Below are positions 39,186 through 64,000 of a DNA stretch of 64,000 bases, piece by piece (the first letter of the stretch is position 1; each line of letters starts with the position of its first letter). The notes under the pieces were generated by a model. That model had not been told where the DNA came from, ran no database searches, and saw only the letters and a program-made list of their open reading frames with translations. Origin of the DNA: Candidatus Omnitrophota bacterium (GTDB lineage Bacteria; Omnitrophota; Gorgyraeia; Zapsychrales; JANLHA01). The translations under genes and the position numbers were made by a program. The stretch covers positions 132,302 to 196,301 of the forward strand of contig JAKLFA010000005.1 of assembly GCA_022711395.1 (NCBI GenBank), in the 5' to 3' direction.

Positions 39186-39232
39186 GACACTAAGGCACTA
39201 TCACACCAAGCGGTTTTTAGTGCCTTAGTGTC
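39186..39232. repeat. palindromic intergenic element, copy A (GACACTAAGGCACT ... AGTGCCTTAGTGTC)
   Basis: perfect 14-bp inverted repeat with a 19-nt T-rich loop, directly after the dnaK stop. A related copy lies at 60921-61010. Confidence 0.7.
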
Positions 39233-46580: not shown

Positions 46581-46614
46581 AATGATCAGAAGGAACTGTA
46601 ATGGAGGAACGATA

Positions 46615-48203: not shown

Positions 48204-50135
48204 ATGAATCGAAAGGCGCAGCAGATCATTGAATATTTGCTTTTGATCGCCAGTGTCCTGCTTGTTTTTCTTGCTGTTTCGGGACCGAACGGCTTCATTC
48301 GGGTGAGGATGGAGGATTCCATTAACCGGACCCTGAATTTGATCAAGAAGGATGACCCGGCGGGTTCTGCTCCGTATTTCTGGTCTGCGGCCAATTGTGA
48401 TTGTTCCGGCCAGCGATCTTGTGTTTATCCGGGCGGTGATGAGGTTGTTGTGACATGTTCTTATGCATGCATTAATAACCTTACCCACGCTCCGGTCAAT
48501 GACTGGCTCTGCTTAGATTCTTTAGGATACAAACCTTCAAGCGAGATGGGATGCGGGGATGATCCCTGTTGCGGGAACGGGGCCTTCGATCTTGCCTACG
48601 GGGAGTTCTGTGACGCCAGCGCGGGTTTTACGGAGACATGTGAAAGCCGTTTCGGGTCACGTTTATACGGCTGGAGCGGAAGCGTGCGCTGCACGAATGA
48701 TTGCAAGATCACGGATGATTGCGTCGAGAATCCTCCTCCGCCGCCTGATGTCTGCGGGGACAATAAGCTGACCGGCAGTGAGGTTTGCGATGAGGTGGCC
48801 GGTGTGGATATTTTCGCGCCGGGAGTTCCTGGAAACTGCACGGACTACATGGTAAGCGGCCATTTTTTTGAAGGAGGCATCTTGGGTTGTGACACAAGCG
48901 CGGACCCTTGCAAGGTGGACACGGGCGACTGTTATCGCTGCGGAGCATGGGGAACCGGGACGTGCGGGACCAGGACGGGTGCTTCGAGGGCCAATCCCAC
49001 ATCACCGGCCCATTGTTCGAAGGACGGCACGGAATTCCTCAGCCGCAATTGTACACGGGGCGATGGAACAACTTTCCTGCAGGGGCAGTGCCGGACCAAC
49101 CCCGCCTGCGGCAATCAATGCGGCATTAGGGAAGATTATTCGACCCTTTGTCCCGGGTCATCAACCTATAGTTACGATCATGACTGGCAATACGTCGATG
49201 ATTTGGCGAATTGCACAGCGGAAGACTGTGTCGCTTATTGTAACGGCGATCTGGTCGTCAGAAGCGGGGGCTGCCACTGCCCTAAGAACAATTTTGTGTT
49301 CAATAGCGAAACGGAAAAATGTTTCTGCCCAAGCCCGTTTGTCATCGTCACCGGCAATTGTCAGCTTTGCGGTAACAGAACATGCGAATCAGCGCCTCCC
49401 GCTAACGAGACTTGCGAGAATTGTCCTGTGGATTGCGGCGAGTGTGACACTCCCGATGATTACGGGGCCTGGCAGAGAATTTCGACGGATGTGTATGGTT
49501 CTTGGAGCCCCATCTCCGGAGGCCGTGAAGTTACGGGAAGCTGTATCGCTAATTACCGCATCCCAAGGGATACGTGTTCGATTGTTGCCAGCGGCGATCA
49601 GTTGCGTGAATTTACTTGCGGGCGGGATGATTGCATCAATTTTTGGGGCTATATCACGCAATTTACCCCGCAGTGTGACGATTCAAGGACCTGCACGGAT
49701 GTCGTTGTCTGGGATACAACGAGGTTACAGGCTAAGTACCGGACCCGCAGCGTGGAATGTAACAATCCGGACATTTATAACCCGGACCGCTACGGGTCAT
49801 GGTCGAGCTGGACGACGATCAATGGTTCATGTTACGACATTCCTTATCGGGACCGGGAGACCTGTGATTATGCTTTTGAGGATTATCCTTACGAATGTGA
49901 ATCTTTCGAAAACAATAAAGATTGTAATGACGTGGAGTGCCAAAATCTTGGCAACGTTCAATATTGCACCTATAAAGAACGAGAGGTCAAATGCTTCAAC
50001 GGCGGGGAAGACACCTGCGATAATAACTCGTTGGCTTCTTATACTTGTCCGGACGGAGTGGCCAAGCCCGCCTGCCGCGATGTGAACCTTTATCAGGGGA
50101 TAGGAGGTTCTTACCGCACGGTGACGTGCAACTAA
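48204..50135 (+). CDS. large secreted Cys-rich protein with Flp/TadE-type pilin-like N-terminus, paralog 2
   Basis: start MNRKAQQIIEYLLLIASVLLVFLAVSG with RBS AAAGGAAAGAGAG. 643 aa and very Cys-rich. Shares the CDCSG, CCGNGAF and GFTETCESRFGS modules with paralog 1. Confidence 0.7.
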   Translation: MNRKAQQIIEYLLLIASVLLVFLAVSGPNGFIRVRMEDSINRTLNLIKKDDPAGSAPYFWSAANCDCSGQRSCVYPGGDEVVVTCSYACINNLTHAPVNDWLCLDSLGYKPSSEMGCGDDPCCGNGAFDLAYGEFCDASAGFTETCESRFGSRLYGWSGSVRCTNDCKITDDCVENPPPPPDVCGDNKLTGSEVCDEVAGVDIFAPGVPGNCTDYMVSGHFFEGGILGCDTSADPCKVDTGDCYRCGAWGTGTCGTRTGASRANPTSPAHCSKDGTEFLSRNCTRGDGTTFLQGQCRTNPACGNQCGIREDYSTLCPGSSTYSYDHDWQYVDDLANCTAEDCVAYCNGDLVVRSGGCHCPKNNFVFNSETEKCFCPSPFVIVTGNCQLCGNRTCESAPPANETCENCPVDCGECDTPDDYGAWQRISTDVYGSWSPISGGREVTGSCIANYRIPRDTCSIVASGDQLREFTCGRDDCINFWGYITQFTPQCDDSRTCTDVVVWDTTRLQAKYRTRSVECNNPDIYNPDRYGSWSSWTTINGSCYDIPYRDRETCDYAFEDYPYECESFENNKDCNDVECQNLGNVQYCTYKEREVKCFNGGEDTCDNNSLASYTCPDGVAKPACRDVNLYQGIGGSYRTVTCN

Positions 50136-50262: not shown

Positions 50263-51195
50263 ATGAAAAAATATACAGTAGGTGTGGATGTCGGCGGGAC
50301 GAACGTCAAGTTTGGCCTCATTGACCCCGCTGGGGTTGTCCTTCATCGAAACCGTTTAGTCACAAAATCTTACGGTTCTGATAAAAACAAGCTCATTAAG
50401 GCTTTGGCTGATGGGGTTCTGGGTCTGATCGCGGCCAGCGGTATTTCCAAGGCTCAGGTCGCAGGGGTGGGGATCGGCCTTCCGGGCCTGGTGAATCCAA
50501 AAGACGGCCTTGTCATTTTTCTGCCCAACATTCCGGGATGGCGGAATGTTCCGTTAAAGTCAAGACTTGAAAAACATTCAGGGCTGCCGGTCTATCTGGA
50601 AAACGACGTGAACCTTATTACGCTTGGTGAATGGGGGTTTGGCGCAGGATGCGGATGCCGCAATATGATCGGCATGACCTTAGGCACGGGCGTTGGCGCC
50701 GGGTTGATCCTGGACGGGAAATTGTATCGGGGGGAAGGGTTCGCCGCCGGTGAATTGGGTCATATGCCGATCAATTTTGAAGGGCCGCGCTGCAATTGCG
50801 GTTCGTTCGCTTGTTTTGAGACATTTGTCGGTAACGGCCGGCTTCAGCAGCGCGCGGCGGATATTTTTCAGCGTGCGGATATCGCGCTTGAGGATGTTTT
50901 TCAGCTGGCGAAGTCCGGCAACGCGAAGGCCCTGCGTTTTTGGCAGGAGACCGGAGAAACGATCGGGACCGGTCTGATCGGGGCCGTGAACCTGCTTAAC
51001 CCGACGCATATCGTGATCGGAGGAGGGGTTTCGCGCAGCCATCAGTTCTTGTTTCCGGCGATCCGCCGGACTATCAAGGCGAGGGCCATGGCCGTCCAAG
51101 GGCGGATGGTCAAGATCGTGCGCGCCCGTTTAGGGGATGATGCCGGTATTATCGGGGCTCAAATTTTAGTTAACCAGGAACAGCAGGCAAAATGA
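50263..51195 (+). CDS. ROK-family sugar kinase (glucokinase/N-acetylhexosamine kinase-like)
   Basis: N-terminal GVDVGGT ATP motif; ROK zinc motif CNCGSFAC. Confidence 0.85.
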   Translation: MKKYTVGVDVGGTNVKFGLIDPAGVVLHRNRLVTKSYGSDKNKLIKALADGVLGLIAASGISKAQVAGVGIGLPGLVNPKDGLVIFLPNIPGWRNVPLKSRLEKHSGLPVYLENDVNLITLGEWGFGAGCGCRNMIGMTLGTGVGAGLILDGKLYRGEGFAAGELGHMPINFEGPRCNCGSFACFETFVGNGRLQQRAADIFQRADIALEDVFQLAKSGNAKALRFWQETGETIGTGLIGAVNLLNPTHIVIGGGVSRSHQFLFPAIRRTIKARAMAVQGRMVKIVRARLGDDAGIIGAQILVNQEQQAK

Positions 51196-51196
51196 T

Positions 51197-53308
51197 ATGA
51201 GAAAATTTCTTATTCGATGCGCGTGTGTGATGTTCTGTGTGATGATTTTGAACCCTTCTGCCAGCCACGCTCAGCAGGAGCTGTCCGCCGTTGAGATCGA
51301 CGGCGATCAGATGGAATACTCGGTCGAAGATAACAAGGTCGTCGCCAGCGGCAATGTCATCGTTTCCAAAGGGGATGTCCGTTTGAAGGCGGACAGGATC
51401 GAATATTTCAGGGATTCGCAAGAGGCGGTGGCTGAGGGGAACGTCGTTTTGGAACGCGGCGGACAGCGTTTAGAAGGCCGGAACATGACCTTCAATTTCA
51501 AGACCATGGTCGGCGGGTTTGAAGAGCCGGAGATGGTCGCCCCGCCGTTGTTCGGCAAGGGAGAGCGCATCATGCGCCTGGACGATGAGCATTTCCGGAT
51601 CTATGACGGTTATGTGACGACATCGGATTTTGATGATCCGGAGACGCGCGTCACGGCGCGCACGATCGATGTTTATCCGGAAGATAAAGCGGTCGCGCGG
51701 AACGTGAAATTCAAGATCGGGAAGGTCCCGGTCTTTTATTTGCCGCGCTACACTTATGATCTGAAACACCGCAAGCCCACCATTGTTTTGACCCCGGGGT
51801 ATTCCGGTGAATGGGGCGGTTTTGTTCTGGGAAGATATCATTACAATACCCCGGAAAATTACGAGCTGGTCTTTCACGCGGATGTGCGCGAACGCAAGGG
51901 TTTCGGCTGGGGGGTCGATGATATTTATAGAACGGAAAACTTCGGGAGGGGTATCCTGCGGACCTATTACACGCATGAACGGGATATCGGCAGCAACCGC
52001 CTTTGGGATGATTATCAAACGGTCGTCGAAAAAGAACGCTACAAAGCGGACTGGCGGCATCGGTGGAACGTGGATGATGAGACAACGGTGGTGGCCCAAT
52101 ATTATAAATTGAGCGACAGCGAATTTTTGAAGGATTATTTTGAATCGGAATATGACCAGGATTCCAGCCCGGAAAGCTATGTGGTGGCCTCCCGCGCGAT
52201 GTCCTACGGGACGCTTGCCGCGCGCGCGGATTACCGGGTCAATCAGTTCGTCAGCACCGTTGAGCGCCTGCCGGAAGTGAAGTATTCCTTGCCCAGCGCG
52301 GAGATCCTTGATTCAGGATTTTATTTTAAGAACAGCAGTTCATATTCCAATCTTGTCAAACAGGAAGCCAATCCCAGCGATAATGACCGACGGACGCAGC
52401 GGGTGGACTTTTCCAATGAATTGTCCAGGCCCTGGAAGATCGGTTTTATCGAGACGCGTCCTTTTGTGGGGACGCGGCAGACGTATTACAGCAGGGCTGT
52501 CAATCCCGATCATTACGATACCGTGCGGGGGGTTTTTGAAACAGGGATGGATGCCAGCACCAAATTTTACCGGACCTATGACGCCCGGACCAACATCCTG
52601 GGGCTGGATATTAATCAGCTTCGCCACGTGATCACTCCCTCGGCCGCGTATTTATACCGCCATGATCCGACCATCACCGCGACCCAGCTTGACCAGTATG
52701 ACGGGGTGGACGCGCTGACTCATCAGGACCGGGTCAAATTATCCCTGGAGAACAAACTTCAGACCAAACGGGAAGACCAGAGCGTGGATTTGGTGCGGAC
52801 CTCGGTCTATACGCATTATCTGTTTAATGAAGAAGGCGCGCGCAACAGCAAATGGGACAACTGGTTCATGGATGTGGAAGTCATTCCGTATAGCTGGTTA
52901 AGTTTTTATGTCGACGGGGAATATGATGTGGACCTTAAAGATATCCAAACGGCGAACTTTGAAATGTATATCAACGATCCCGGGAAGTTGTGGTATCTGC
53001 GTTTCGCCGACCGTTATGAAAAGAACCTGGATAATCAGATCGACACCGAGGTCGGCGTGAAGCTGAACCCCAAATGGGATTTTCGCGTCCGGCAGCGTTA
53101 TGATATCCAGTCCGGGCAGAGTAAGGAGCAGGAGTATGGTTTTGTGAGGGACCTTCACACCTGGCTCATGCATTTGACCTTTAATAAGCGGCAATTTGAT
53201 GGGGAAGAGTTCTGGGTCATGTTTTCGCTCAAGGAGTTCCCGGATTTGAGGTTCAGCGCCTCCCGGGCCTGGAGCGGCGGGGCGGAACGACCGGGCTACG
53301 CCAAGTAA
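51197..53308 (+). CDS. lptD: LPS-assembly protein LptD (OstA family)
   Basis: 703 aa; signal peptide, OstA-like N-domain (VEIDGDQMEY...GNVIVSKGDVRLKADRIEY), large C-terminal beta-barrel. Confidence 0.85.
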   Translation: MRKFLIRCACVMFCVMILNPSASHAQQELSAVEIDGDQMEYSVEDNKVVASGNVIVSKGDVRLKADRIEYFRDSQEAVAEGNVVLERGGQRLEGRNMTFNFKTMVGGFEEPEMVAPPLFGKGERIMRLDDEHFRIYDGYVTTSDFDDPETRVTARTIDVYPEDKAVARNVKFKIGKVPVFYLPRYTYDLKHRKPTIVLTPGYSGEWGGFVLGRYHYNTPENYELVFHADVRERKGFGWGVDDIYRTENFGRGILRTYYTHERDIGSNRLWDDYQTVVEKERYKADWRHRWNVDDETTVVAQYYKLSDSEFLKDYFESEYDQDSSPESYVVASRAMSYGTLAARADYRVNQFVSTVERLPEVKYSLPSAEILDSGFYFKNSSSYSNLVKQEANPSDNDRRTQRVDFSNELSRPWKIGFIETRPFVGTRQTYYSRAVNPDHYDTVRGVFETGMDASTKFYRTYDARTNILGLDINQLRHVITPSAAYLYRHDPTITATQLDQYDGVDALTHQDRVKLSLENKLQTKREDQSVDLVRTSVYTHYLFNEEGARNSKWDNWFMDVEVIPYSWLSFYVDGEYDVDLKDIQTANFEMYINDPGKLWYLRFADRYEKNLDNQIDTEVGVKLNPKWDFRVRQRYDIQSGQSKEQEYGFVRDLHTWLMHLTFNKRQFDGEEFWVMFSLKEFPDLRFSASRAWSGGAERPGYAK

Positions 53309-53335: not shown

Positions 53336-54673
53336 ATGAATATCGCAGTCATCGGCGCGGGATATGTCGGGCTGGTCACCGGTGTGTGTCTGGCGGAGAT
53401 CGGCCATAAAGTCATCTGTATAGACAATGATGAGAAAAAGATCAAGGCCCTTAAGCAGGGGGCGTGCCCGATCTATGAGCCGGGCCTCGAGCAGATGATG
53501 GCCGGCCTGTGCAAAAAGAAGCGGTTGAGCTTTACGACGTCGATCCGGGAGGCGACCCAAAGATCGGAAGTGATCTTCATCGCGGTCGGGACGCCTTCGA
53601 AAAAGAACGGCGATGCTGACCTGACCTATGTGGAGAACGTGGCCCGACAGATCGCTGAGAATATGGACAGCTATAAACTGATCGTGGAGAAATCCACTGT
53701 GCCGGCCGAGACCGGCCAGCGAGTCAAGCGCACGATCATGCTGAACCTTCCGCAGAAATACCGCAAAGGAAAGAACGCTGTGGCATTCGACGTGGCGTCA
53801 AACCCCGAATTCTTGCGGGAAGGGTCCGCCATTGAGGATTTCATGAACCCGGACCGTGTGGTCATCGGCGTGGAATCAAAAAAAGCGGAAGAGCTTCTGC
53901 GTGAGGTGTATAAGCCTTTAAAACCGAAGATGGTCGTGACTAATATCAATTCAGCGGAGATCATCAAGCATGCTTCCAATTCTTTTTTGGCGACCAAGAT
54001 CTCCTTCGCGAACGCGCTTTCGCAGATCTGCGACCGGGTGGGGGCGGACGTGCTGAAAGTCGCGGAGGGTATGGGGTATGATAAAAGGATCGGCCGCTCA
54101 TTTTTGAACGCCGGCGTCGGTTACGGCGGAAGCTGTTTTCCGAAGGATGTCGATGCTTTTATCCGTCTGAGCCAACGCAGCGGTTATGAGTTCGAGCTTT
54201 TGAAAGAGGTTCGCAATATCAATGAGCTTCAGAAGAGAGCGTTCGTTCAATTCATTGAAGACAAGCTCTGGATCCTGAAAGGAAAGACGATCGGCGTCCT
54301 GGGGCTGGCCTTTAAGCCGGACACGGATGATATGCGCAAGGCCCCATCGATCGATATCATCCAGATGTTTTTGGCGGAAGGGGCCAGGGTCCGGGCATAT
54401 GACCCTCAGGCAACGGAGAACGCGAAAAAGGTCATGAAGAAAGCAGCGTATTTCAAGGATGCTTATACGATGGCCAAAGGTTGTGATTGTTTGGTCCTTT
54501 TGACGGAGTGGGAGGAATTCAGCCGCCTTGATTTCAGGCGTTTGGCGAAACTGATGAAACAGCCCATTCTTTTCGACGGAAGGAATTTTTACTGGCAGCA
54601 CGGCCTGGAGAAGTTCGGGTTTGAATATCACGGGATCGGTCGCGGCCAGGGCGGCTTAAAAGGTTCTGTTTAA
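53336..54673 (+). CDS. ugd: UDP-glucose 6-dehydrogenase
   Basis: 445 aa; NAD motif IGAGYVGL, catalytic Cys in GGSCFPKD. Confidence 0.9.
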   Translation: MNIAVIGAGYVGLVTGVCLAEIGHKVICIDNDEKKIKALKQGACPIYEPGLEQMMAGLCKKKRLSFTTSIREATQRSEVIFIAVGTPSKKNGDADLTYVENVARQIAENMDSYKLIVEKSTVPAETGQRVKRTIMLNLPQKYRKGKNAVAFDVASNPEFLREGSAIEDFMNPDRVVIGVESKKAEELLREVYKPLKPKMVVTNINSAEIIKHASNSFLATKISFANALSQICDRVGADVLKVAEGMGYDKRIGRSFLNAGVGYGGSCFPKDVDAFIRLSQRSGYEFELLKEVRNINELQKRAFVQFIEDKLWILKGKTIGVLGLAFKPDTDDMRKAPSIDIIQMFLAEGARVRAYDPQATENAKKVMKKAAYFKDAYTMAKGCDCLVLLTEWEEFSRLDFRRLAKLMKQPILFDGRNFYWQHGLEKFGFEYHGIGRGQGGLKGSV

Positions 54674-54692: not shown

Positions 54693-55997
54693 ATGAGCGC
54701 GCAGCTTTTAAAGAAAATAAAAACGAAAAAGGCGGTTGTTTCTGTCCTGGGGTTGGGATATGTCGGGCTTCCCTTGGCGGTGAATTTCGCCAAGGCGGGG
54801 TTTACGGTCTGCGGGTTTGACACGGATGAGGACCGGGTGAACAGGGTGTCGACCCGGAAAAGCTATATCGCTGATATTCCGCAGAAGGACCTTGCGGGCG
54901 TTGTGCGCAGCGGGCATCTTTCGGCCACAACGGATTTCAGCAGATTGTCGGAAACGGACGTTGTGATCATCTGCGTGCCGACGCCTCTTAAGAGCAAATA
55001 CACACCGGACGTGTCTTATATTATCGGGGCGGTGCGGATCCTGAGAAAGTATTTGAAACGCGGGGTTCTGGTCGTTCTTGAGAGCACGACCTATCCGGGG
55101 ACGACCAGGGAAATGATCCAGCCGGAACTGGAGAAGTCGGGCCTCAAAGCGGGGAAGGATTTCTTTTTGGCGTTCTCTCCGGAGCGCATCGACCCGGGCA
55201 ACAAGGTCTATGACGTGACCCGCATCCCGAAAGTTGTGGGAGGCTTGGACGCCCAAAGCGCGAAACTTACCAAAGAGCTTTATTCCAAGATCATCAAAAC
55301 GATCCATCCGGTCTCTTCACCCGAGGCGGCGGAGATGACGAAGCTTTTGGAAAATTCGTTTCGGATCATCAATATCGGCTGGATCAATGAAGTGGCGATG
55401 ATGTGCGAAAAAATGGGCATTGATATCTGGGAGGTCATTGAGGCGGCCAAGACCAAGCCGTTCGGGTTCATGCCGTTCTATCCCGGCCTTGGGGTGGGCG
55501 GCCACTGCATTCCGGATGATCCATTGTATTTATATTGGAAGGCAAAGCGGTATGGGTTTGATTCGAAATATATCAAGCTCTCGGCGGACACCAACGCTCA
55601 GATGCCTGCCTATGTGATCCGTCGCATCGCCCAGGCCTTGCAGGAACGGAAAAAAACGTTGAAAAAGGCCAAGATCCTGGTCGTGGGAGTCACCTACAAA
55701 AAAGACGTGAGGGATTTGCGCAAATCACCGTCTTTGAACCTGATCCGGCTGCTGCAGGAACAGGTTTCTAAAGTTGATTATTTCGACCCGTTGATCCCAT
55801 ATCTTGAGATCTTCAATATCCATCAGAAAGTATCCGTGGTGCCGACACCGGAATCGCTGCGCCGTTATGATTGCGTGGTGATCGCCACGGACCATTCGCA
55901 GATCGATTATCAAAAACTGCTCAAACACGCGCGCCTGGTCTTTGATACGCGCAATGTCTATAAGTCTGTCCGAAGCGCGAAAGTGATTCGGTTATAA
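54693..55997 (+). CDS. UDP-N-acetyl-D-hexosamine 6-dehydrogenase (WbpA/TviB/WecC-like nucleotide-sugar dehydrogenase)
   Basis: 434 aa; LGLGYVGLP NAD motif, catalytic Cys GVGGHCIPDD. Confidence 0.85.
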   Translation: MSAQLLKKIKTKKAVVSVLGLGYVGLPLAVNFAKAGFTVCGFDTDEDRVNRVSTRKSYIADIPQKDLAGVVRSGHLSATTDFSRLSETDVVIICVPTPLKSKYTPDVSYIIGAVRILRKYLKRGVLVVLESTTYPGTTREMIQPELEKSGLKAGKDFFLAFSPERIDPGNKVYDVTRIPKVVGGLDAQSAKLTKELYSKIIKTIHPVSSPEAAEMTKLLENSFRIINIGWINEVAMMCEKMGIDIWEVIEAAKTKPFGFMPFYPGLGVGGHCIPDDPLYLYWKAKRYGFDSKYIKLSADTNAQMPAYVIRRIAQALQERKKTLKKAKILVVGVTYKKDVRDLRKSPSLNLIRLLQEQVSKVDYFDPLIPYLEIFNIHQKVSVVPTPESLRRYDCVVIATDHSQIDYQKLLKHARLVFDTRNVYKSVRSAKVIRL

Positions 55998-56009: not shown

Positions 56010-56963
56010 ATGGGGCGCAAAAAAAATGTGGTGATCACGGGAGGGGCGGGATTTTTAGGGAGCCATTTATGCGATCTGCTGTTGTCGGATGGCTATAAGG
56101 TCTTCTGTGTCGACAACCTGATCACCGGAAGCATGAAGAACATCGAGCATTTGAAGCGTGAACGATGTTTTGAATTCATTAAGCATGATATCTCCAAACC
56201 GATCACGATTTCAGGGCCGCTTGATTTCATCCTTCATTTTGCCTCTCCGGCGAGCCCGATCGATTATCTGATGTATCCGATCCAGACCTTGAAAGTGGGT
56301 TCTTTGGGGACGCACAATAGCCTGGGTCTTGCCAAGTGCAAGAAAGCGCGCTTTCTTCTGGCCTCGACGTCTGAAGTCTATGGGGACCCTCTGGAGCACC
56401 CTCAGAAGGAAACCTATTGGGGGCATGTGAACCCCATAGGCCCTCGGGGAGTCTATGATGAGGCAAAACGTTTCGCGGAAGCGATCACGCTGGCCTATCA
56501 CCGGTATCACAAGGTTGACGTCCGCATTGTCCGGATCTTCAACACCTACGGGCCGCGGATGCGCATTCACGACGGGAGAGTCGTTCCAAATTTTATTTAT
56601 CAGGCCCTGCGCGGCCAGCCGCTGACGGTTTACGGGGCGGGCCGGCAGACGCGATCATTCTGCCATTATTATGATCTGATCGAAGGGATCTACAGGCTGC
56701 TCCTTTCGGATCATGTGGGGCCGGTCAATATCGGGAATCCTTCTGAGTTCACGATCCTGCAGTTCGCTAAACTTGTGCTGAAACTTTCCGGCTCCAAGAG
56801 CGTGATCAAATATGAACCGCTGCCGACGGATGACCCAAAACGGCGCAAGCCGGATATTTCGCTTGCCAGGCGCCTGCTCAAATGGGAGCCGGTCGTGCAG
56901 TTGGAAGAAGGTTTGCGTGAGACCATTGCCTGGTTCCAGGAAAAAGGATGCCTTGAGAAATGA
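56010..56963 (+). CDS. UDP-glucuronate (or UDP-GlcNAcA) decarboxylase, UXS/ArnA-C-like SDR
   Basis: 317 aa; [18 protein letters not shown] YxxxK; high similarity to UDP-xylose synthases. Confidence 0.85.
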
Positions 56964-57964
56964 CCAATAAAGACTGTGCTCCCTTTCCCAATCCTGAATT
57001 AACGGCGGCAGCGGCAGCCGATTTCCTAACGAGAATGCTCATGATCCGCCGTGCCGAGCTTAAGATCGAAGAACTTTATCCTCTTGAACAGATGAAGACC
57101 CCGGTGCATTTGAGCCTAGGCCAGGAGGCTGTTTCCGCCGGCGTGTGCATGCATTTAAACCGGGATGATGCGGTCTTCAGCAATCACCGCAGTCACGGCC
57201 ATTACTTGGCCAAGGGCGGAAGCCTTAAGGAACTCATCGCGGAGCTTTATTGCCGTGAGACAGGCTGCTCCAAAGGCCGTGGGGGTTCCATGCATGTGAT
57301 CGCCAAAGATGCCGGTCATTGGGGAAGTTCTTCGATTGTTGCGGGCGCGACGCCCCACGCGGTGGGGGCGGCTTTGGCGTTTCAAATGCAAAAGAAAAAC
57401 GCCGTCGCGGTTTGTTTTTTAGGTGACGGGGCCTGTGAACAGGGGGTTTTTTTTGAGAGCATGAATTGGGCCGCGCTCAAAAAAGTCCCGGTGGTCTTTG
57501 TGATCGAGAATAACTTTTATTCGGTCAGCTCACACATTTCCGTGCGGGAGGTTAATGAATTTTTATACAAGCGCGCCTGGGCGTTCGATATTCCTTCGTT
57601 CAGGGTCGATGGAATGAACCCGCTGGATGTTTACGCTTCAGCGGCGGAAGCCGTTGAGCACGCGCGCTCGGGAAAGGGGCCGTTCGTCGTTGAATACGTT
57701 CTTCAGCGTTGGCGCATGCACGTCGGTCCGGGCGATCCTAACGCCGCGCTGTACCGTGCGCCCGAGGAGCTGCAGGCTGGCTATCAGCGTGACCCGATCA
57801 AAGAATTTGTTGAACATGTTCTTACGGCCGGGATATTGAAGGAGCAGGAGATCGCGCAGATCAGCTCGCGGGTCGATGGTGAGGTCGAAGAGGCATTTGT
57901 CTTCGCGCAGAACAGCCCGCTGCCTGACGGGGGGGATCTCGCGAAGTTTTTATTTGTCGACTAG
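56960..57964 (+). CDS. TPP-dependent dehydrogenase E1 component alpha subunit-like (sugar-modifying two-carbon transferase candidate)
   Basis: 334 aa; TPP-binding motif GDGACEQG...ENN; overlaps previous gene by 4 nt. Confidence 0.85.
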
Positions 57965-57988
57965 ATAACAGAAAGCTGTTTTTCAATT

Positions 57989-59044
57989 ATGCCATGGACC
58001 AAATTACAAGTTGAACGTGAAGAGCCGGCGTTTGATGAGAACGCAGGGGACAATGTCCGCAAACTGGATTTCGGGACTGCCTTGCTTGAAGCGCAGGACC
58101 AGGCGCTCGCGCGCGATCCGCGTGTTTTTGTCATGGGCCAGGGAGTGAATGACCCCAATGGCGCGTTCGGCACGACGAATGCCCTTTACAAGAAGTACGG
58201 CCTTGAACGCGTTTTTGACACGCCGCTCAACGAAGAGTCCACGATCGGCATCGCGCTGGGGGCCGCTATGGCGGGTATGCGTCCGGTGGTGGTCCATAAT
58301 CGTCCGGATTTTCTTTTGATGGCCATGGACCAGATCGTCAACCATGCCGCCAAGTGGAGCTATATGTTTGCCGGACAGGTTCCCTTGCCGGTGGTCATCC
58401 GCTCATGTGTCGGAAGGGGATGGGGGTCTGCGGCTCAGCATTCGCAAACTGTGCACGGGCTTTTTCATCATGTGCCGGGATTAAAGATCGTTCTGCCATC
58501 GACCGCTTATGATGCCAAGGGGCTTTTGATCTCAAGCATCGCTGACAATAATCCGGTTTTATTTTTTGAGCAGCGATGGCTTTATAAACATCAAAGCCAT
58601 GTCCCGGAGTATGTTTACGCGGTCCCGTTCGGCCAGGCCGCCGTGAAGCGGAAAGGAAAAGACGTGACGGTCGTCGCGGTATCGCACATGGTCATTGAAT
58701 CGTTGCGGGCGGCCGATGAGCTTGCTGCAGAGGGGATTGATGTCGAGGTGATCGACCCCCGGACGATCCGTCCGCTGGATATTGAGACGATCCTGGCTTC
58801 GGTCCGTAAGACCGGGCGGCTTGTGGTGGCGGACCTGGCCTGGACAACAGGAGGCTTCGCGGCGGAAGTTGTTGCCGTGGTTACAGAGCGGGCATTTCAT
58901 GGCCTGAAATGCGCTCCCAGGCGCGTGGCGTTTCCGGATCTTCCGACCCCGGCGGGATACACCCTGGAACAGGCGTTCTATCCAGGGGCGAAAGACATCA
59001 AAAAAGCAGTTCTGGAAATGGTTCGACCCAGCGAGAAGGTTTGA
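57989..59044 (+). CDS. TPP-dependent dehydrogenase E1 component beta subunit-like (transketolase-like Pyr and C-terminal domains)
   Basis: 351 aa; similarity to PdhB/AcoB family. Confidence 0.85.
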   Translation: MPWTKLQVEREEPAFDENAGDNVRKLDFGTALLEAQDQALARDPRVFVMGQGVNDPNGAFGTTNALYKKYGLERVFDTPLNEESTIGIALGAAMAGMRPVVVHNRPDFLLMAMDQIVNHAAKWSYMFAGQVPLPVVIRSCVGRGWGSAAQHSQTVHGLFHHVPGLKIVLPSTAYDAKGLLISSIADNNPVLFFEQRWLYKHQSHVPEYVYAVPFGQAAVKRKGKDVTVVAVSHMVIESLRAADELAAEGIDVEVIDPRTIRPLDIETILASVRKTGRLVVADLAWTTGGFAAEVVAVVTERAFHGLKCAPRRVAFPDLPTPAGYTLEQAFYPGAKDIKKAVLEMVRPSEKV

Positions 59045-59047
59045 GAT

Positions 59048-59983
59048 ATGGATGAACAATCGGTCATTTTTATCAGCGGAGGTAACGGTCTTAAGGCACG
59101 GGCCATCGCGGAACATTTTGGTTCCCTGGGCTATCGGCGCCTTTTGACAGCGCGTTCAGCCGGGCTGGATATCCTGAGCCGCGAAGCGGTTGATGATTTT
59201 TTCAAAGAATATCATCCTGCCTATGTGATCATAAGCCCACTGGCATCTGAGGAGCCCTCGGGCGTTGATAATCGTCCGGCAGAATATTTTTTGATGAACA
59301 TGCTGGGGCAGACGCATGTGATCGATGCCGCCTATCGCCATGGAGCGAAAAAACTTTTGTACTTGGCGGGCGGTGATGTTTACCCCCGTCAGTGTCCGCA
59401 GCCGATGAGGGAAGAATATATCGCCGCTGGTCCGTTATGCCCTTATAATCGGGCGAACGCTATCGCGCAGGCGGCCGGGATCGCGATGTGCCAGGTTTAC
59501 CGGAAGCAGTATCAGTTCAACGCGGTGGTCGCGGTCTCTTCCATGGTCTACGGCCCTTCGGGAGGGGAAGATGAGGGCCGGCAGGGATTTTTGTCTGAGA
59601 TGATCGATCTTTTTGTCGAGGCGGTAGCGGAAAACGCAAAGAAGGTCCGGATCGTCCGGAATCCCGATGTCCGCAGGGAATTTTTGTTCTCAGCGGACTT
59701 TGCCGAGGCCTGCGAATTTCTGTTGCGCCATTATGACGGGAAAGAGCCCGTGAACATTGGTTCCGGCGTGGATGTTTCGATCCGCGATCTTGCCGAAATG
59801 ATCAAAGACATTTCCGGGTTCGAAGGGGCCATTGAATATGATGGACGCGCGCATGACGAGGACTTTCAACGGCTTTTGGATGTCGCGTCCCTGCACACGA
59901 TGGGATGGATGGCCAGGACTGTCTTGCGGGAAGGCCTTGTGCGTTTGTGGGAGACGTCTTATAAGAAAGGATTGCTGATATGA
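59048..59983 (+). CDS. GDP-L-fucose synthase-like SDR (epimerase/reductase homolog, possibly non-canonical active site)
   Basis: 311 aa; Fcl/GER1-like fold (KKLLYLAGGDVYP, MVYGP); see finding about missing S/Y/K. Confidence 0.75.
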   Translation: MDEQSVIFISGGNGLKARAIAEHFGSLGYRRLLTARSAGLDILSREAVDDFFKEYHPAYVIISPLASEEPSGVDNRPAEYFLMNMLGQTHVIDAAYRHGAKKLLYLAGGDVYPRQCPQPMREEYIAAGPLCPYNRANAIAQAAGIAMCQVYRKQYQFNAVVAVSSMVYGPSGGEDEGRQGFLSEMIDLFVEAVAENAKKVRIVRNPDVRREFLFSADFAEACEFLLRHYDGKEPVNIGSGVDVSIRDLAEMIKDISGFEGAIEYDGRAHDEDFQRLLDVASLHTMGWMARTVLREGLVRLWETSYKKGLLI

Positions 59984-60912
59984 AGATCTTGGTTACCGGC
60001 GGGGCGGGTTACATCGGTTCGGTCCTGGTCCCGCGCCTTTTGAAAGAGGGCCACACGGTCACGGTTCTGGATAATTTCATGTATAAGCAGAGTTCGCTTT
60101 TAGATTGCTGCGTGGACCCAAAGCTTGAGGTCGTGCGGGGGGACGCGAGGGATCCCGCCCTGGTGGAGCGTCTCATGAAGACGGCGGACGCTATTTTTCC
60201 GCTGGCGTGCTTAACGGGCGCGCCGTTGTGCGCCATGGACCCGGATACGGCGCGCGGCGTGATCGTTGATGCGGTGCGAAAAATTCTGAAGGTCAAAAGC
60301 AAAGACCAGATCATTGTTTATCCGACCACAAACAGCGGTTACGGGATCGGGGAACGGGATAAGATGTGCACGGAAAAATCTCCGTTAAAGCCGGTGTCGC
60401 TATACGGTCGGTTGAAGGTGGAGGCGGAAGAAACGATTCTTCAGGCCGGAAACGCGATCACTTTAAGGCTGGCCACGGCATTCGGGGTCAGCCCGCGCAT
60501 GCGGCTGGACCTTCTGGTCAATGATTTTACTTACCGGGCGGTCTATGACCGTTATCTGGTGATCTTTGAGGCGAAGTTCCGCCGGAATTTTATTCACGTG
60601 CGTGACGTGGCCAAGGCGTTCTCTCACGCGTTGAACAATTTCGAAAAAATGAAGGACCAGGCCTATAACGTCGGGTTAAGCGACGCCAATTTGAGCAAAT
60701 GGCAGCTGTGTGAAGAGATCAAGAAATTGATCCCTGATTTTTATTTTGTTGAGTCGGACATCAATGAGGACCCGGATAAACGGGACTATATCGTCTCCAA
60801 CGAAAAGATCGAGGCGGCAGGGTTTAGGCCGGACCATTCGCTTCAGTCGGGCATTGTGGAATTGATCAAAGCCTATAAGATCATCAAACGCAACCAGTAT
60901 GCGAATATTTGA
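59980..60912 (+). CDS. NAD-dependent epimerase/dehydratase (extended SDR)
   Basis: 310 aa; VTGGAGYIGS Rossmann motif, YGRLK YxxxK. Confidence 0.8.
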   Translation: MKILVTGGAGYIGSVLVPRLLKEGHTVTVLDNFMYKQSSLLDCCVDPKLEVVRGDARDPALVERLMKTADAIFPLACLTGAPLCAMDPDTARGVIVDAVRKILKVKSKDQIIVYPTTNSGYGIGERDKMCTEKSPLKPVSLYGRLKVEAEETILQAGNAITLRLATAFGVSPRMRLDLLVNDFTYRAVYDRYLVIFEAKFRRNFIHVRDVAKAFSHALNNFEKMKDQAYNVGLSDANLSKWQLCEEIKKLIPDFYFVESDINEDPDKRDYIVSNEKIEAAGFRPDHSLQSGIVELIKAYKIIKRNQYANI

Positions 60913-60920
60913 AATGACAA

Positions 60921-61010
60921 GACACTGGGGCACTAAGGCACTTCGACACTGGTGTCTTAGCAACTTGGTTTTAAGTTTTTTAGTGCCCTAGTGTCTTAGT
61001 GCCAGGTGTC
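60921..61010. repeat. palindromic intergenic element, copy B (GACACTGGGGCACTAAGGCACT ... TTTTAGTGCCCTAGTGTCTTAGTGCCAGGTGTC)
   Basis: shares the GGCACTAAGGCACT and TTTTAGTGCC(T/C)TAGTGTC cores with copy A at 39186-39232; internally palindromic (GACACTGGTGTC). Confidence 0.7.
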
Positions 61011-61030
61011 TTTAATAAGGTTGAGCGGTC

Positions 61031-62536
61031 ATGTCGTTAGATATTTTGTTCATACATCCTAATGCGGCAGAAATCCTTTATCAGGGGCTGAATAAAACAT
61101 ATTCCGCGATCGAACCGCCGATCTGGGCGGGGATGCTTGCCAATCATGTGCTGAGCCGCGGTTACAGCGCTGAGATCCTGGACACCGAGGCGTTGCAGGC
61201 CACCGATGAACAGGCGGTCGGCTGGATCACAAAGGTTTGCCCGCGTTTAGCGGCATTTGTGATCTACGGTCAGCAGCCCAGCGCGTCCACTCAGAATATG
61301 GAGGGCGCTGTTCGGCTGGCGGAAAAATTGCGCGCCGTGGCGCCGGAGCAGAAGATCTTGTTTGTCGGGGCGCACGTGGCCGCCCTTCCTTTTGAAACAT
61401 TGGAAAGGCATGGATGTATTGATTTTGTGTGCCAGAACGAAGGCGTTTATACGATCTCCGGACTTTTGGCCACGGACCTCCGTTCGAAGCTCGACAAGGT
61501 TCGGGGATTGGGATGGAGGAGTGAAAAGGACATTGTCTTAAATCCGCCGTCCGCGATCGTTTCACAAAAGGACCTGCAGAAAGAATTGCCGGGCGTGGCG
61601 TGGGACCTGTTGCCGATGGAGCGTTACCGCACGGCCCTGTGGCACGCGCTTCCCAACGGATGCGTTCGCGAGCCGTTCGTCTCGCTTTACACCAGTTTGG
61701 GCTGCCCGATGAAATGTTCGTTCTGCATGATCAATATCATTAACCGTCAGGATAACGCCTATTCAGACGGAAGCGCGGTGTTCCGTTACTGGGATCCGGA
61801 ATTTATCATCAAGGATTTTGAGCGTTTCGCCCGGATGGGGATCAGGAACATCAAGATCGCGGATGAGCTTTTTGTCTTTAAGAAGGAACATTTTTTAAAA
61901 TTGTGCGAACTGATCATTGAGCGCGGGTTTGATTTCAATATCTGGTGCTACGCGAGGGTCGATATGACGCGGCCTGAATATCTGGAAACGATGAAGCGGG
62001 CCGGGGTCAACTTCTTGGCGCTCGGCATTGAAAGCGGTAATGCGCGGGTCCGGAGCGGGGTGACCAAGGGGCGGTTTAAGGAAACGGACATTGAACAGGC
62101 CGTCCGGACGATCCAGGATTGCGGGATCTCCGTGGCGGGGAATTATATTTTCGGATTGCCGGATGATGACCGTGACAGCATGCGGGAGACTTTGGACCTG
62201 GCCAAGAGATTGAACACGGAAATGGCGAACTTTTATTCGGCGATGGCCTATCCGGGAAGCCCTCTTTACGGCATGGCGCTGCAGGAAGGGTGGGCGTTGC
62301 CGGAGCGTTACGCGGGATTTTCGCAGCATTCGTATTACACGCGGCCTTTACCGACGAAATATTTAAGTGCTGAGGAAGTTTTGGCGTTCCGGGACAAGGC
62401 GTGGATGGAGTATCACACGCGGCCGGAATTTTTGACGGTGCTCAAAGAAAAATTCGGGCAGACGGCCGTTGATGAAACGCTGCGTTCGACCCGGATCAAA
62501 CTTAAACGAAAGATCCTAGAGGAGGCGGGGATATGA
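61031..62536 (+). CDS. B12-binding domain / radical SAM protein
   Basis: 501 aa; N-terminal cobalamin-binding-like domain, radical SAM Cys triad GCPMKCSFC. Confidence 0.85.
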   Translation: MSLDILFIHPNAAEILYQGLNKTYSAIEPPIWAGMLANHVLSRGYSAEILDTEALQATDEQAVGWITKVCPRLAAFVIYGQQPSASTQNMEGAVRLAEKLRAVAPEQKILFVGAHVAALPFETLERHGCIDFVCQNEGVYTISGLLATDLRSKLDKVRGLGWRSEKDIVLNPPSAIVSQKDLQKELPGVAWDLLPMERYRTALWHALPNGCVREPFVSLYTSLGCPMKCSFCMINIINRQDNAYSDGSAVFRYWDPEFIIKDFERFARMGIRNIKIADELFVFKKEHFLKLCELIIERGFDFNIWCYARVDMTRPEYLETMKRAGVNFLALGIESGNARVRSGVTKGRFKETDIEQAVRTIQDCGISVAGNYIFGLPDDDRDSMRETLDLAKRLNTEMANFYSAMAYPGSPLYGMALQEGWALPERYAGFSQHSYYTRPLPTKYLSAEEVLAFRDKAWMEYHTRPEFLTVLKEKFGQTAVDETLRSTRIKLKRKILEEAGI

Positions 62537-63531
62537 TCATCAGCCGCACGCCGTTTCGGATATCATTTTTCGGAGGGGGGACCGATTATCCCGGATGGTT
62601 TAAGGACCATAAGGGCGCGGTTCTGGCCACCACGATCGATAAGTATTGTTATATCACCTGCCGGTATCTGCCGCCTTTTTTTAAGCACAGATCAAGGATC
62701 ATGTATTCCCAGATCGAGCTTGTCCAAACTATTGACGAGATCGACCATCCGGCGGTGCGGGAGGTCCTTCGTTTTTTGGATATTCAGGAAGGCGTTGAGA
62801 TCCATCATGACGGCGATCTGCCGGCGAGGACCGGCTTGGGTTCAAGTTCTTCATTCACTGTTGGGCTTCTGAATTCGTTGTATGCCCTTTTGGGAACGAT
62901 GCCGACCAAAGAGCAGCTGGCGCGGGAAGCGATCCATATTGAACAGGACCTTTGCAAGGACGTGGTCGGCTGCCAGGACCAGACCCTGGTCGCTTATGGG
63001 GGTTTGAATTTCATTGAGTTCGGCGGTGAGAATCATTTGAAGGTCCGTCAGGTCACCATCGGAAAGGAAAAGATCCAGGGGCTGCAGGATCATTTGATGA
63101 TGTTCTTCACGGGATTTTCACGGACGGCCTCCACGATCGCCGAGCATCAGATCCGCAATATTCCTGCGAGGACCGCGGAATTGAAAGCGATGTATGACAT
63201 GGCGCTTCATTCCGTGGAGATCCTTAACCGCGGGGACCTGGATGATTTTGGGCGGCTGCTTGATGAAAGCTGGAAGCTGAAGAAGTCCTTGTCCGACAAG
63301 ATCACAACGTCTGAGATCGACGCGATGTATGAGGCGGCGCTAAAGCACGGCGCCCTGGGCGGAAAGCTTTTAGGCGCGGGTGGCGGGGGTTTTGTCCTTT
63401 TGTTCGTTCCGCCGGAAAAGCAGCCCCGGGTGAGGCAGCAGCTGAAAAAGTATCTTCAGGTCCCGATCAAGTTCGAGGACCTGGGATCGCAGATCATTTT
63501 TTATCAACCGAACACGGGAAAAGTGGATTGA
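62533..63531 (+). CDS. GHMP-family sugar kinase (D-glycero-D-manno-heptose 7-phosphate kinase HddA-like)
   Basis: 332 aa; PFRISFFGGGTDYP N-terminus and PARTGLGSSSSF ATP-binding motif of the HddA/COG2605 family. Confidence 0.8.
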   Translation: MIISRTPFRISFFGGGTDYPGWFKDHKGAVLATTIDKYCYITCRYLPPFFKHRSRIMYSQIELVQTIDEIDHPAVREVLRFLDIQEGVEIHHDGDLPARTGLGSSSSFTVGLLNSLYALLGTMPTKEQLAREAIHIEQDLCKDVVGCQDQTLVAYGGLNFIEFGGENHLKVRQVTIGKEKIQGLQDHLMMFFTGFSRTASTIAEHQIRNIPARTAELKAMYDMALHSVEILNRGDLDDFGRLLDESWKLKKSLSDKITTSEIDAMYEAALKHGALGGKLLGAGGGGFVLLFVPPEKQPRVRQQLKKYLQVPIKFEDLGSQIIFYQPNTGKVD

Positions 63532-63533
63532 CA

Positions 63534-64000
63534 TGACGAAAACGGTTTCAGAGATCGACGCGCTGGTCTTGTGCGGGGGGATGGGGACGCGGTTGCGCTC
63601 GGTGATCGGGGAACGGCAGAAGGTTGCCGCGGAAGTTGACGGCCGCCCGGTTCTTTCCATCCAGCTTGAGCGTCTGGCGAAGCAGGGGGTCGAACATGTG
63701 GTTTTGGCTGCCGGCTTCGGCGCCGCGCAGATCAAAGAGGCGGTTGATCAGAACGACTTCGGTTTGGATATTGATATTTCCGTTGAGCCGCAGCCTTTGG
63801 GGACCGGCGGGGCCATCAAGCATGCCCGGGCTTTGGCCAAAAGGAAACAATGGATCATCATGAACGGGGACTGCCTGTTCGATATTTCGTTCGCCGATCT
63901 GTTGCGTTTCCATAATGAAAAAAGATCCCTGGTGACGCTGTCCGTTTGTCCCCGTGATGACGCGCAGGATTACGGAACGGTCGAGTTCGACCCTCAGCAC
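63534..64000 (+). CDS. sugar-phosphate nucleotidyltransferase (HddC/GMP-like), 5' partial - continues beyond window
   Basis: LVLCGGMGTRLR nucleotidyltransferase motif; ATG 3 nt after upstream stop; truncated by window edge. Confidence 0.75.

Follow-up and report, generated by a model that had tools for sequence, protein, structure and literature searches.

Why should genes resembling the E1 subunits of pyruvate dehydrogenase (PDH) stand in the middle of a row of sugar genes? The question is raised by a DNA stretch of 64,000 nt from a Candidatus Omnitrophota bacterium (assembly GCA_022711395.1, contig JAKLFA010000005.1, positions 132,302 to 196,301), which was analyzed at its full length and is called the window below. 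From position 56960 to the window end, an E1-like alpha/beta pair is encoded together with two short-chain dehydrogenases/reductases (SDRs), a radical S-adenosylmethionine (SAM) enzyme with a B12-binding domain, a GHMP sugar kinase and a nucleotidyltransferase. On balance, these genes and the next genes of the contig probably constitute a pathway to a modified GDP-heptose for an envelope glycan of this Omnitrophota-like bacterium. The reading is carried by the domain identities of the gene products, the homology of one SDR to the Campylobacter jejuni SDR in the structure 6VO6, a His substitution in the active site of a DegT protein, the absence of E2 and E3 genes, and the conserved synteny of the locus.

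The gene set is as the first-pass annotation of the window had described it, including the UXS-type decarboxylase gene that precedes the E1-like pair. Each open reading frame was found at its expected place and was assigned with Pfam and NCBIfam:

56010-56963, plus strand: UXS-type UDP-glucuronate decarboxylase, an SDR (Pfam SDR; human UXS1 structures)
56960-57964, plus strand: E1-like alpha subunit, thiamine diphosphate (ThDP) PP domain (Pfam E1_dh, 236.6 bits, E = 4e-70)
57989-59044, plus strand: E1-like beta subunit, Pyr and C-terminal domains (Pfam Transket_pyr and Transketolase_C)
59048-59983, plus strand: SDR1, GDP-fucose-synthase family (Pfam Epimerase; NCBIfam GDP-L-fucose synthase)
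59980-60912, plus strand: SDR2, Cj1427-like (Pfam Epimerase; homology to PDB 6vo6/6vo8)
61031-62536, plus strand: B12-domain radical SAM enzyme (Pfam B12-binding, 37.6 bits against a cutoff of 32.1, and Radical_SAM)
62533-63531, plus strand: GHMP sugar kinase, putatively of the HddA/WcbL/LmbP type (Pfam GHMP_kinases_N/C)
63533-64000, plus strand: sugar-1-phosphate nucleotidyltransferase, cut by the window end (Pfam NTP_transferase)

The best NCBIfam families of these products are PDH E1 alpha and beta, GDP-fucose synthase, HpnJ, HddA and HddC. Among the best NCBIfam matches of these products, only the subfamily model matched by the E1 beta subunit reaches its curated cutoff.

The E1-like alpha/beta pair

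The alpha subunit contains the ThDP motif GDG...NN in the form FLGDGAC...VIENN. It failed both NCBIfam equivalog models for PDH E1 alpha, scoring 314.8 bits against a cutoff of 393.85 and 205.5 bits against 411.35. The beta subunit failed its equivalog model (310.6 bits against 454) and passed the subfamily model by 6 bits (327 against 321); its nearest solved structure is the PDH E1 beta subunit of Geobacillus stearothermophilus (257 bits), and its identity in syntenic loci is 65-84%. The pair is flanked by the UXS-type decarboxylase and the Cj1427-like C4-dehydrogenase, and this synteny is conserved. E2 and E3 genes, whose presence the first-pass annotation would have taken, together with clustering among true dehydrogenases, as the sign of a genuine dehydrogenase, were detected neither in the window nor in any of the syntenic and module loci mapped, and the same holds for lipoyl genes.

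Plasmid-borne E1 alpha proteins with 37-43% identity to the window protein are each followed by a gene for a dihydrolipoamide acyltransferase or a lipoyl protein. In an unrooted neighbor-joining tree, which holds only four E2-linked references and leaves out AviB1/B2, Plm8/9 and AlmDI/DII, the four E2-linked E1 alphas are split in 97 of 100 bootstraps from the 18 module E1 alphas and one E2-less Streptomyces E1 alpha. The latter, a plasmid-encoded natural-product E1 alpha, shares 44-47% identity with the window protein and falls on the module side of the tree. Like the window protein and the other E2-less E1 alphas it carries an H-V-G-P-G loop, at the place of which the E2-linked proteins have H-S-x-x-D.

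Across genomes, the position of the ThDP enzyme is occupied by four architectures: the full E1 alpha/beta pair, a mini-E1, a split transketolase-like pair and a single-chain enzyme of the YerE/acetolactate synthase (ALS) type. The mini-E1 consists of a 210-aa protein, which corresponds to the N-terminal two-thirds of E1_dh (its first 170-180 positions), and a 178-aa Transket_pyr protein; it has no Transketolase_C domain. It is present in 37 of the 53 Omnitrophota loci with a radical SAM enzyme of the window type, for example in L019 (6058-6690 and 6787-7323) and L053 (6833-7462 and 7481-8017), and likewise in L014, L020, L013 and L029. The full-length E1 of the window lineage is in the minority within its phylum. 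The split transketolase-like pair occupies the slot in Bdellovibrio sp. HCB290, and a 631-aa single-chain protein with TPP_enzyme_N/M/C domains, of the YerE/acetolactate-synthase type, does so in a Prochlorococcus single-amplified genome (SAG; L085). In heterotetrameric E1 enzymes, the E2 binding domain docks on the C-terminal domain of the beta subunit, as in the G. stearothermophilus E1-PSBD structure. Since the slot tolerates both the loss of this domain and a YerE-type enzyme, its occupant is best read as a free-standing ThDP carboligase or decarboxylase rather than a component of a complex. The evidence points against the E1 pair of the window being part of a 2-oxoacid dehydrogenase complex. 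The four architectures, down to a minimal E1 of 210 and 178 aa, amount to a natural experiment on the minimal needs of a carboligating ThDP enzyme.

In the Prochlorococcus genome (SAG AG-409-P03, L085 11517-17580), genes for a PanB-like ketopantoate hydroxymethyltransferase, the YerE/ALS-like enzyme and a second radical SAM-SPASM protein adjoin the radical SAM homolog. A longer branch could arise if the PanB-like enzyme supplied a substituted 2-oxo acid as the donor.

Heptose activation, oxidation and deoxygenation

SDR2 aligns with PDB 6vo6/6vo8 over 308 residues without a gap (400.7 bits, about 58% identity), with the YxxxK motif kept, and its identity across the phyla that carry the module is 57-73%. 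The two structures are deposited as 'putative sugar-nucleotide epimerase/dehydratase', and a C. jejuni cluster of 313-aa proteins matches the 6vo6 sequence at 96% identity; we take 6VO6 to be Cj1427, the GDP-heptose C4-dehydrogenase. Cj1427 recycles its bound NADH with alpha-ketoglutarate (PMC10680097; PMC7949155). Together with the C3-dehydratase of C. jejuni HS:5 it converts GDP-heptose into GDP-3-deoxy-4-keto-heptose in vitro (PMC10680097).

A candidate for the dehydration step was found about 250 nt beyond the window end. The contig was recovered a second time from a JGI metagenome (L001), in which the proteins are 100% identical and the sequence continues past the window. There, the remainder of the nucleotidyltransferase gene is followed by genes for DegT1, a polysaccharide deacetylase, a GT9 glycosyltransferase, DegT2, a GT2 glycosyltransferase, a GmhB-like HAD protein, a GT28 glycosyltransferase and priA, in this order. 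DegT1 (L001 13222-14388), which comes straight after the nucleotidyltransferase, has His at the position of the Lys that forms the Schiff base with pyridoxal phosphate ('lyaaHiit' against 'ffgnKiit' of perosamine synthetase). His is found in 65 of 67 DegT1 orthologs and Lys in all 29 DegT2 proteins; the top NCBIfam match of DegT1 is RfbH. The replacement of Lys by His is the signature of a 3-dehydratase of the ColD/E1 (RfbH) type, dependent on pyridoxamine phosphate (PMP).

The nearest solved structures of the GHMP kinase are WcbL (4usm/4usk, 134 bits), a putative heptose-7-phosphate kinase (4n3o, 122 bits) and 3k85. The kinase is conserved at 56-81% identity in most module loci and at 39-47% in the most distant ones, and is probably an anomeric kinase for heptose 7-phosphate. 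The full-length nucleotidyltransferase (L001 12503-13225, 240 aa) is, by its profile scores, probably a guanylyltransferase. The first-pass annotation had pointed downstream of the window for gmhA, gmhB and glycosyltransferase genes. The GmhB-like HAD gene and the GT9, GT2 and GT28 genes are indeed present there, and the GT9 protein scores above the cutoff for heptosyltransferase II (157.7 bits against 134.6); no gmhA gene was found on the part of the contig examined. GmhA-like SIS genes adjoin the module in the loci L009, L011, L071, L073, L076 and L089.

SDR1 scores 218 bits with the NCBIfam model of GDP-L-fucose synthase, below the cutoff, and 140-151 bits with solved chains deposited under the same name. 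Among these chains are 7anc, 7anh and 7m13, which we believe to be the heptose C4-reductases of C. jejuni. SDR1 is missing in L006 and L010, and is probably an accessory epimerase or reductase with either the GDP-keto-sugar or the carbonyl of the branch as its target.

Proposed pathway

The proposed pathway would start from heptose 7-phosphate, which the GHMP kinase would phosphorylate at C1. After removal of the 7-phosphate by the GmhB-like phosphatase, the nucleotidyltransferase would form GDP-heptose. Oxidation at C4 would be catalyzed by SDR2, as its strong homology to the C. jejuni protein suggests. The C3 hydroxyl would then be eliminated by the His-type DegT protein, which would give GDP-3-deoxy-4-keto-heptose; this step is proposed in view of the His signature in the active site and of what is known from C. 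jejuni. The E1-like pair, acting without E2 and E3, would decarboxylate a 2-oxo acid, most simply pyruvate, and the acyl anion carried on ThDP would be added at the ketone of C4. The product of this reaction would be a nine-carbon sugar with a 4-C-acyl branch. The branching step is modeled on YerE of the yersiniose route (PMC9306805) and on the E1-like pairs of paulomycin and avilamycin biosynthesis, Plm8/9 and AviB1/B2 (PMC4802897); precedents for ThDP-dependent sugar branching are given in these two papers and in PMC10338323. The carbon skeleton may subsequently be altered by the radical SAM enzyme through C-methylation, radical cyclization or rearrangement, or diol dehydration, and the GDP-fucose-synthase-like SDR would catalyze an epimerization or a reduction. 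The final sugar would be installed by the downstream GT9, GT2 and GT28 glycosyltransferases. We infer which substrates are used, in what order the steps proceed, which acid is the donor and what the radical SAM enzyme catalyzes. The core of the first-pass annotation, namely an E1-like pair without E2/E3 in sugar branching, a heptose-activation pair, a further change of the carbon skeleton by a B12-type radical SAM enzyme and, as the product, a branched deoxy-heptose for a surface glycan, gains independent comparative support from the SDR2 homology, the His-type DegT protein, the absence of E2/E3 genes from the window and the syntenic loci examined, the split in the E1 alpha tree and the YerE-like occupant of the ThDP slot.

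Two other product or substrate classes were considered and set aside. For bradyrhizose, the candidate cluster reportedly centers on a dTDP-glucose 4,6-dehydratase, with no other genes known (PMC4743980); no link to the present locus was found. Phosphonate chemistry, with a Ppd-like decarboxylase, a Fom3/PhpK-like methylase and a cytidylyltransferase, was rejected in view of the missing phosphoenolpyruvate mutase and of the SDR and DegT partners, which are GDP-sugar enzymes.

The radical SAM enzyme

The cluster-binding motif CPMKCSFC (CX3CX2C; C225, C229 and C232) is invariant. The best curated family is HpnJ, for which the protein scores 174.2 bits and fails the cutoff of 577.6; no hpn (hopanoid) genes are present in the locus. 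An AlphaFold2 model (pLDDT 80, pTM 0.86) matches the folds of AprD4 (the best match), TsrM, MgmA, OxsB, CysS and TokK with TM scores of 0.56-0.67. The protein combines an N-terminal Rossmann domain of the B12-binding type with a TIM-barrel core. Cobalamin binding and methyl transfer are possible functions; AprD4 has the same fold without cobalamin. Two subfamilies are distinguished. Proteins of the window type have an insertion, NRQDNAYSD, and share 65-72% identity across Omnitrophota. The second type, with about 41% identity (L004, L006, L010 and L011), occurs with the full E1 pair in other Omnitrophota, in Elusimicrobia and in Sedimentisphaerales.

Members of the B12-domain radical SAM family that do not methylate are indistinguishable from methylases by sequence or structure (2026 review, PMC12931638). 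Sequence does not decide here between methylation, rearrangement and dehydration. As an estimate, C-methylation is the tentative first choice, radical cyclization or rearrangement is a possible but lesser candidate, and an AprD4-like diol dehydration is unlikely, with what remains left to some other reaction.

A special case of cyclization would lead to a carbocyclic sugar of the caryose type. Once the ThDP enzyme had placed an acetyl group on C4 of GDP-3-deoxy-4-keto-heptose, the HpnJ-like radical SAM enzyme would abstract hydrogen from C7. Bond formation between C7 and C8, at the carbonyl of the branch, would then produce a 4,8-cyclo-3,9-dideoxy-nonose skeleton. This idea comes from the fit of the atom pattern, with seven plus two carbons, the 3-deoxy and 9-deoxy positions and tertiary alcohols at C4 and C8, and we regard it as quite improbable. 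The biosynthetic origin of caryose is stated to be unknown (PMC9092360). If the idea were true, it would provide the first biosynthetic route to a carbocyclic lipopolysaccharide (LPS) sugar and a new C-C bond-forming reaction of a B12-domain radical SAM enzyme, and carbocyclic sugars would be widespread in uncultured phyla.

Distribution of the module

The closest relatives of the E1 alpha and radical SAM proteins are encoded in metagenome-assembled genomes of Candidatus Omnitrophota, several of which are deposited as 'uncultured Planctomycetales'. In the window, the module is preceded by the following genes:

50263-51195, plus strand: ROK
51197-53308, plus strand: LptD
53336-54673, plus strand: UDP-glucose 6-dehydrogenase (Ugd)
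54693-55997, plus strand: second nucleoside diphosphate (NDP)-sugar dehydrogenase (DH2)

The order ROK, LptD, Ugd, DH2, UXS, ThDP enzyme, SDR, SDR, radical SAM enzyme, GHMP kinase, nucleotidyltransferase and DegT is kept in dozens of Omnitrophota species representatives. This makes it an envelope locus conserved on the chromosome, rather than an island.

A core module is composed of the ThDP enzyme, the Cj1427-like SDR, the His-type DegT protein, the radical SAM enzyme, the GHMP kinase and the nucleotidyltransferase, with or without GmhB, SIS and the Fcl-like SDR. It is conserved across Omnitrophota and is found, in shuffled order, in about ten further phyla, and the first-pass description of such a gene set as rare does not hold. 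Carriers outside Omnitrophota include Elusimicrobia, Sedimentisphaerales, Acidobacteriota, Nitrospira, Leptolyngbyaceae (cyanobacteria), Bdellovibrionales, Paenibacillus, delta- and other Proteobacteria, and SAR11 single-cell genomes; a Chloroflexota locus contains all core members except the radical SAM enzyme. Conservation within the module is highest for the Cj1427-like SDR and the kinase. The association with UDP-sugar genes upstream, which had been part of the first description, is seen across Omnitrophota and breaks down outside this phylum, where Ugd and UXS are absent from the module loci examined.

Several carriers are cultured. The plasmid pDMC1 of Solidesulfovibrio magneticus RS-1 (L093, 11992-20970; DMR_RS21980-22020) has the genes in the order GT2, GT2, radical SAM, NUDIX, kinase, E1 alpha, E1 beta, Fcl, DegT, SDR and nucleotidyltransferase, followed by a GT-C gene. 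A few kb downstream (L093, 25444 onward), this magnetotactic sulfate reducer carries lhgO, encoding L-2-hydroxyglutarate oxidase, which would fit an alpha-ketoglutarate/2-hydroxyglutarate cycle of a Cj1427-type enzyme. On plasmid AZO_p6 of Azospirillum lipoferum 4B the module is divided into two blocks. Genes for methylthioadenosine phosphorylase and methylthioribose-1-phosphate isomerase (L099, 3745-6010) adjoin the block with the E1 and DegT genes, and may serve to salvage SAM by-products of the radical SAM enzyme. The module is also present in Bdellovibrio sp. HCB290 and HCB288. Upstream of the module in a Sedimentisphaerales locus (L011, 1-2494), genes for an NTP-transferase, an SIS isomerase, a HAD phosphatase and a transaldolase lie together. 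This is the enzyme set of the lincosamide GDP-octose route (LmbO/N/K/R), and in view of the match some lineages may start from an octose.

Alternative explanations

Several results weigh against the GDP-heptose pathway proposed here. The kinase scores 152 bits with the HddA model, far from the cutoff of 600. The nucleotidyltransferase remains below cutoff with both of its best models, mannose-1-phosphate guanylyltransferase (158 bits) and HddC (147 bits against 300), and so does the GmhB-like HAD protein of the same contig (159 bits against 178). Neither the window nor the examined remainder of the contig contains a GmhA/SIS gene. The equation of 6VO6 with Cj1427 is our own assumption, backed by the C. 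jejuni match. The catalytic His for lipoyl acylation is kept in the E1 alpha subunit, the E1 alpha tree has the narrow sampling described above, and no result constrains the donor acid or the sequence of the steps.

A further point of this kind concerns the UXS gene (56010-56963), whose product is close to the human UXS1 structures (376 bits, E = 1e-111). Its stop codon overlaps the start of the E1 alpha gene by 4 nt, which raises a possible functional link to UDP-4-keto-xylose. Ugd and UXS could accordingly deliver this keto-sugar to the E1 pair for addition of an acetyl group, as in the formation of eurekanate, with the kinase, the nucleotidyltransferase and the Cj1427-like SDR belonging to a separate, ordinary heptose pathway. 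Besides the translational coupling, the position of Ugd, DH2 and UXS upstream of the ThDP genes in nearly all Omnitrophota loci would fit this explanation, and EvdS6 has been proposed to act in this way with the E1-like EvdU5/EvdS3 (PMC10338323). Outside Omnitrophota, however, the ThDP enzyme accompanies the Cj1427-like SDR, the His-type DegT protein, the kinase and the radical SAM enzyme without Ugd and UXS. The closeness of the window protein to human UXS1 also speaks against it: enzymes of the UXS1 type normally reduce the keto intermediate, EvdS6 being the exception. We consider this explanation unlikely, and the UXS gene a neighbor outside the cross-phylum core, possibly an alternative supplier of a 4-keto sugar. 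An Arn-like reading, with Ugd, UXS, DegT2, the deacetylase and the GT2 glycosyltransferase acting toward 4-amino-4-deoxy-L-arabinose (L-Ara4N), was considered for the flanking genes only.

The ThDP enzyme might also act before activation, on a sugar phosphate and in the manner of transketolase or DXS, the SIS, GHMP, HAD and NTP enzymes then forming an NDP-higher-sugar; the transaldolase-initiated GDP-octose route of the lincosamides would be comparable. The split transketolase-like pair at some loci is in keeping with this, as are the NTP-SIS-HAD-transaldolase set that adjoins the module in L011 and the kinase itself, which is only about 30% like canonical HddA and yet about 60% conserved within the module. 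To our knowledge, E1-type enzymes do not make ketose phosphates. A YerE-like enzyme fills the slot in L085, and the Cj1427-like dehydrogenase and the His-type dehydratase would yield just the 3-deoxy-4-keto acceptor of the characterized branching enzymes (PMC9306805, PMC10680097), so that action before activation appears rather unlikely. It is hardly credible that an ordinary E1 of a pyruvate or acetoin dehydrogenase has come to lie among these sugar genes by chance. PDH E1 subunits are the best solved relatives of the pair, the active-site His is retained and the beta subunit is just over the PDH E1 beta subfamily cutoff. Against this stand the lack of E2, E3 and lipoyl genes in the window and in the syntenic loci examined, the sugar-operon position kept across phyla, the mini-E1 that dispenses with the beta C-terminal domain in most Omnitrophota, and the alpha subunit, which scores below the equivalog cutoffs and lies apart from the E2-linked E1s. 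The GDP-heptose pathway remains the favored reading.

Significance

The first-pass annotation had considered the composition of the locus uncharacterized, and this judgment stands: no paper describing the module was found, a literature search returned none in which heptose and radical SAM appear together with thiamine or cobalamin, and those homologs that have a name carry generic labels only. Taken singly, the chemistries are known. The novelty lies in bringing together an E1-type enzyme, or any of its three substitutes, and a B12-domain radical SAM step on a scaffold of GDP-heptose, and in the wide spread of this set among mostly uncultured diderm bacteria. Known examples of ThDP-dependent NDP-sugar branching come from a small number of LPS sugars, with enzymes of the YerE type, and from antibiotics of actinomycetes, with E1-like enzymes; the present locus would join such branching to the oxidation and deoxygenation of GDP-heptose of the Campylobacter type and add a radical SAM step. 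The module stands next to lptD across Omnitrophota; in SAR11, Prochlorococcus, Bdellovibrio, Azospirillum and others it is part of glycan islands. If the proposal is true, the envelopes of many uncultured bacteria would commonly contain a branched (or carbocyclic) sugar of nine or ten carbons that has gone unrecognized. Direct tests of the pathway are possible in the cultured carriers S. magneticus RS-1, A. lipoferum 4B and Bdellovibrio sp. HCB290.

Other features of the window

The gene row on the plus strand is tightly packed from 50263 to the window end. From the ROK gene onward the spacing ranges from -4 to 27 nt, save for a 118-nt spacer 5′ of the radical SAM gene, which bears a hairpin:

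60929-61003, no strand assigned: REP-like inverted-repeat hairpin (fold and motif counts)

Of the four 4-nt overlaps claimed for the row, those at 56960, 59980 and 62533 are present as ATGA. At 63531 there is no overlap; the stop codon of the kinase (TGA, 63529-63531) and the next ATG (63533) are separated by one nucleotide (TGA-c-ATG).

The stretch 60905-61035 (131 nt) around the hairpin has a folding energy of -46.3 kcal/mol (z = -4.0). The REP-like motif G[GA]CACTAAGGCACT occurs five times in the window against 0.18 expected, and the REP-like element is found in two intergenic spacers, 39186-39232 (between dnaK and dnaJ) and 60929-61003 (between the SDR and radical SAM genes). A promoter and terminator scan of 48-64 kb gave results at chance level. 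At gathering thresholds, Rfam had no match anywhere in the window, and thus no cobalamin riboswitch.

Directly upstream of ROK and LptD lie two open reading frames, 46549-48162 (537 aa) and 48204-50135 (643 aa); Pfam assigns no domain to the first at E <= 1e-5 or to the second at E <= 1e-3. The other genes of the window are of the housekeeping type: pur genes, glyA, cca, miaA, hflX, hrcA-grpE-dnaK-dnaJ, accD and genes for two GGDEF proteins. Two fusion proteins were noted, one of 354 aa that joins a Sua5/YciO/YrdC domain to a low-molecular-weight phosphotyrosine phosphatase domain (11479-12543), and one of 969 aa with PurS at the N-terminus of FGAM synthase (4268-7177).

Comparison with known systems

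The logic of the proposed pathway is that of yersiniose A, which is formed from CDP-4-keto-3,6-dideoxyglucose by YerE and YerF and has relatives (ErwE/MMAR_2332) with a longer branch (PMC9306805). In that route, PMP-dependent 3-deoxygenation is followed by attachment of a ThDP-bound acyl branch from a 2-oxo acid at C4 and by a reductase, and the product is part of LPS or lipooligosaccharide (PMC9306805). The present system differs in its scaffold, which would be GDP-heptose and not a CDP-6-deoxyhexose, and in its 4-keto group, which would come from a Cj1427-type oxidase and not from a 4,6-dehydratase. Furthermore, it has an E1 alpha/beta pair in place of the ALS-like flavoprotein, and a radical SAM enzyme of the B12 type in addition.

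In gene content, the locus resembles the systems with AviB1/AviB2, Plm8/Plm9 and EvdU5/EvdS3, in which a PDH-E1-like heterodimer without E2 and E3 is likewise encoded among NDP-sugar genes. These pairs have been assigned to the addition of a two-carbon branch from pyruvate (PMC4802897, PMC10338323). They act on dTDP- or UDP-deoxysugars of actinomycete antibiotics, whereas the pair described here lies on the chromosome of a diderm, beside GDP-heptose enzymes in an envelope locus linked to lptD.

The radical SAM enzyme has its own points of comparison. It shares the two-domain architecture of HpnJ, which is genetically tied to the formation of a cyclopentane carbocycle from an aminosugar (PMC9092360), but its score is far below the cutoff of that family and hopanoid genes are missing nearby. 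AprD4, its best fold match, acts on a sugar ring and does not use cobalamin.

Another related system is the capsular heptose pathway of C. jejuni, which comprises GmhA, HddA, GmhB, HddC, Cj1427, the HS:5 C3-dehydratase and C4-reductases (PMC10680097). The kinase and the nucleotidyltransferase of the window are probably of the same type, the putative C4-dehydrogenase is about 58% identical, and a His-type C3-dehydratase and an Fcl-like reductase have their counterparts there. In contrast, the C. jejuni pathway has no ThDP or radical SAM enzyme, and its products are stereoisomeric and deoxy heptoses without a branch.

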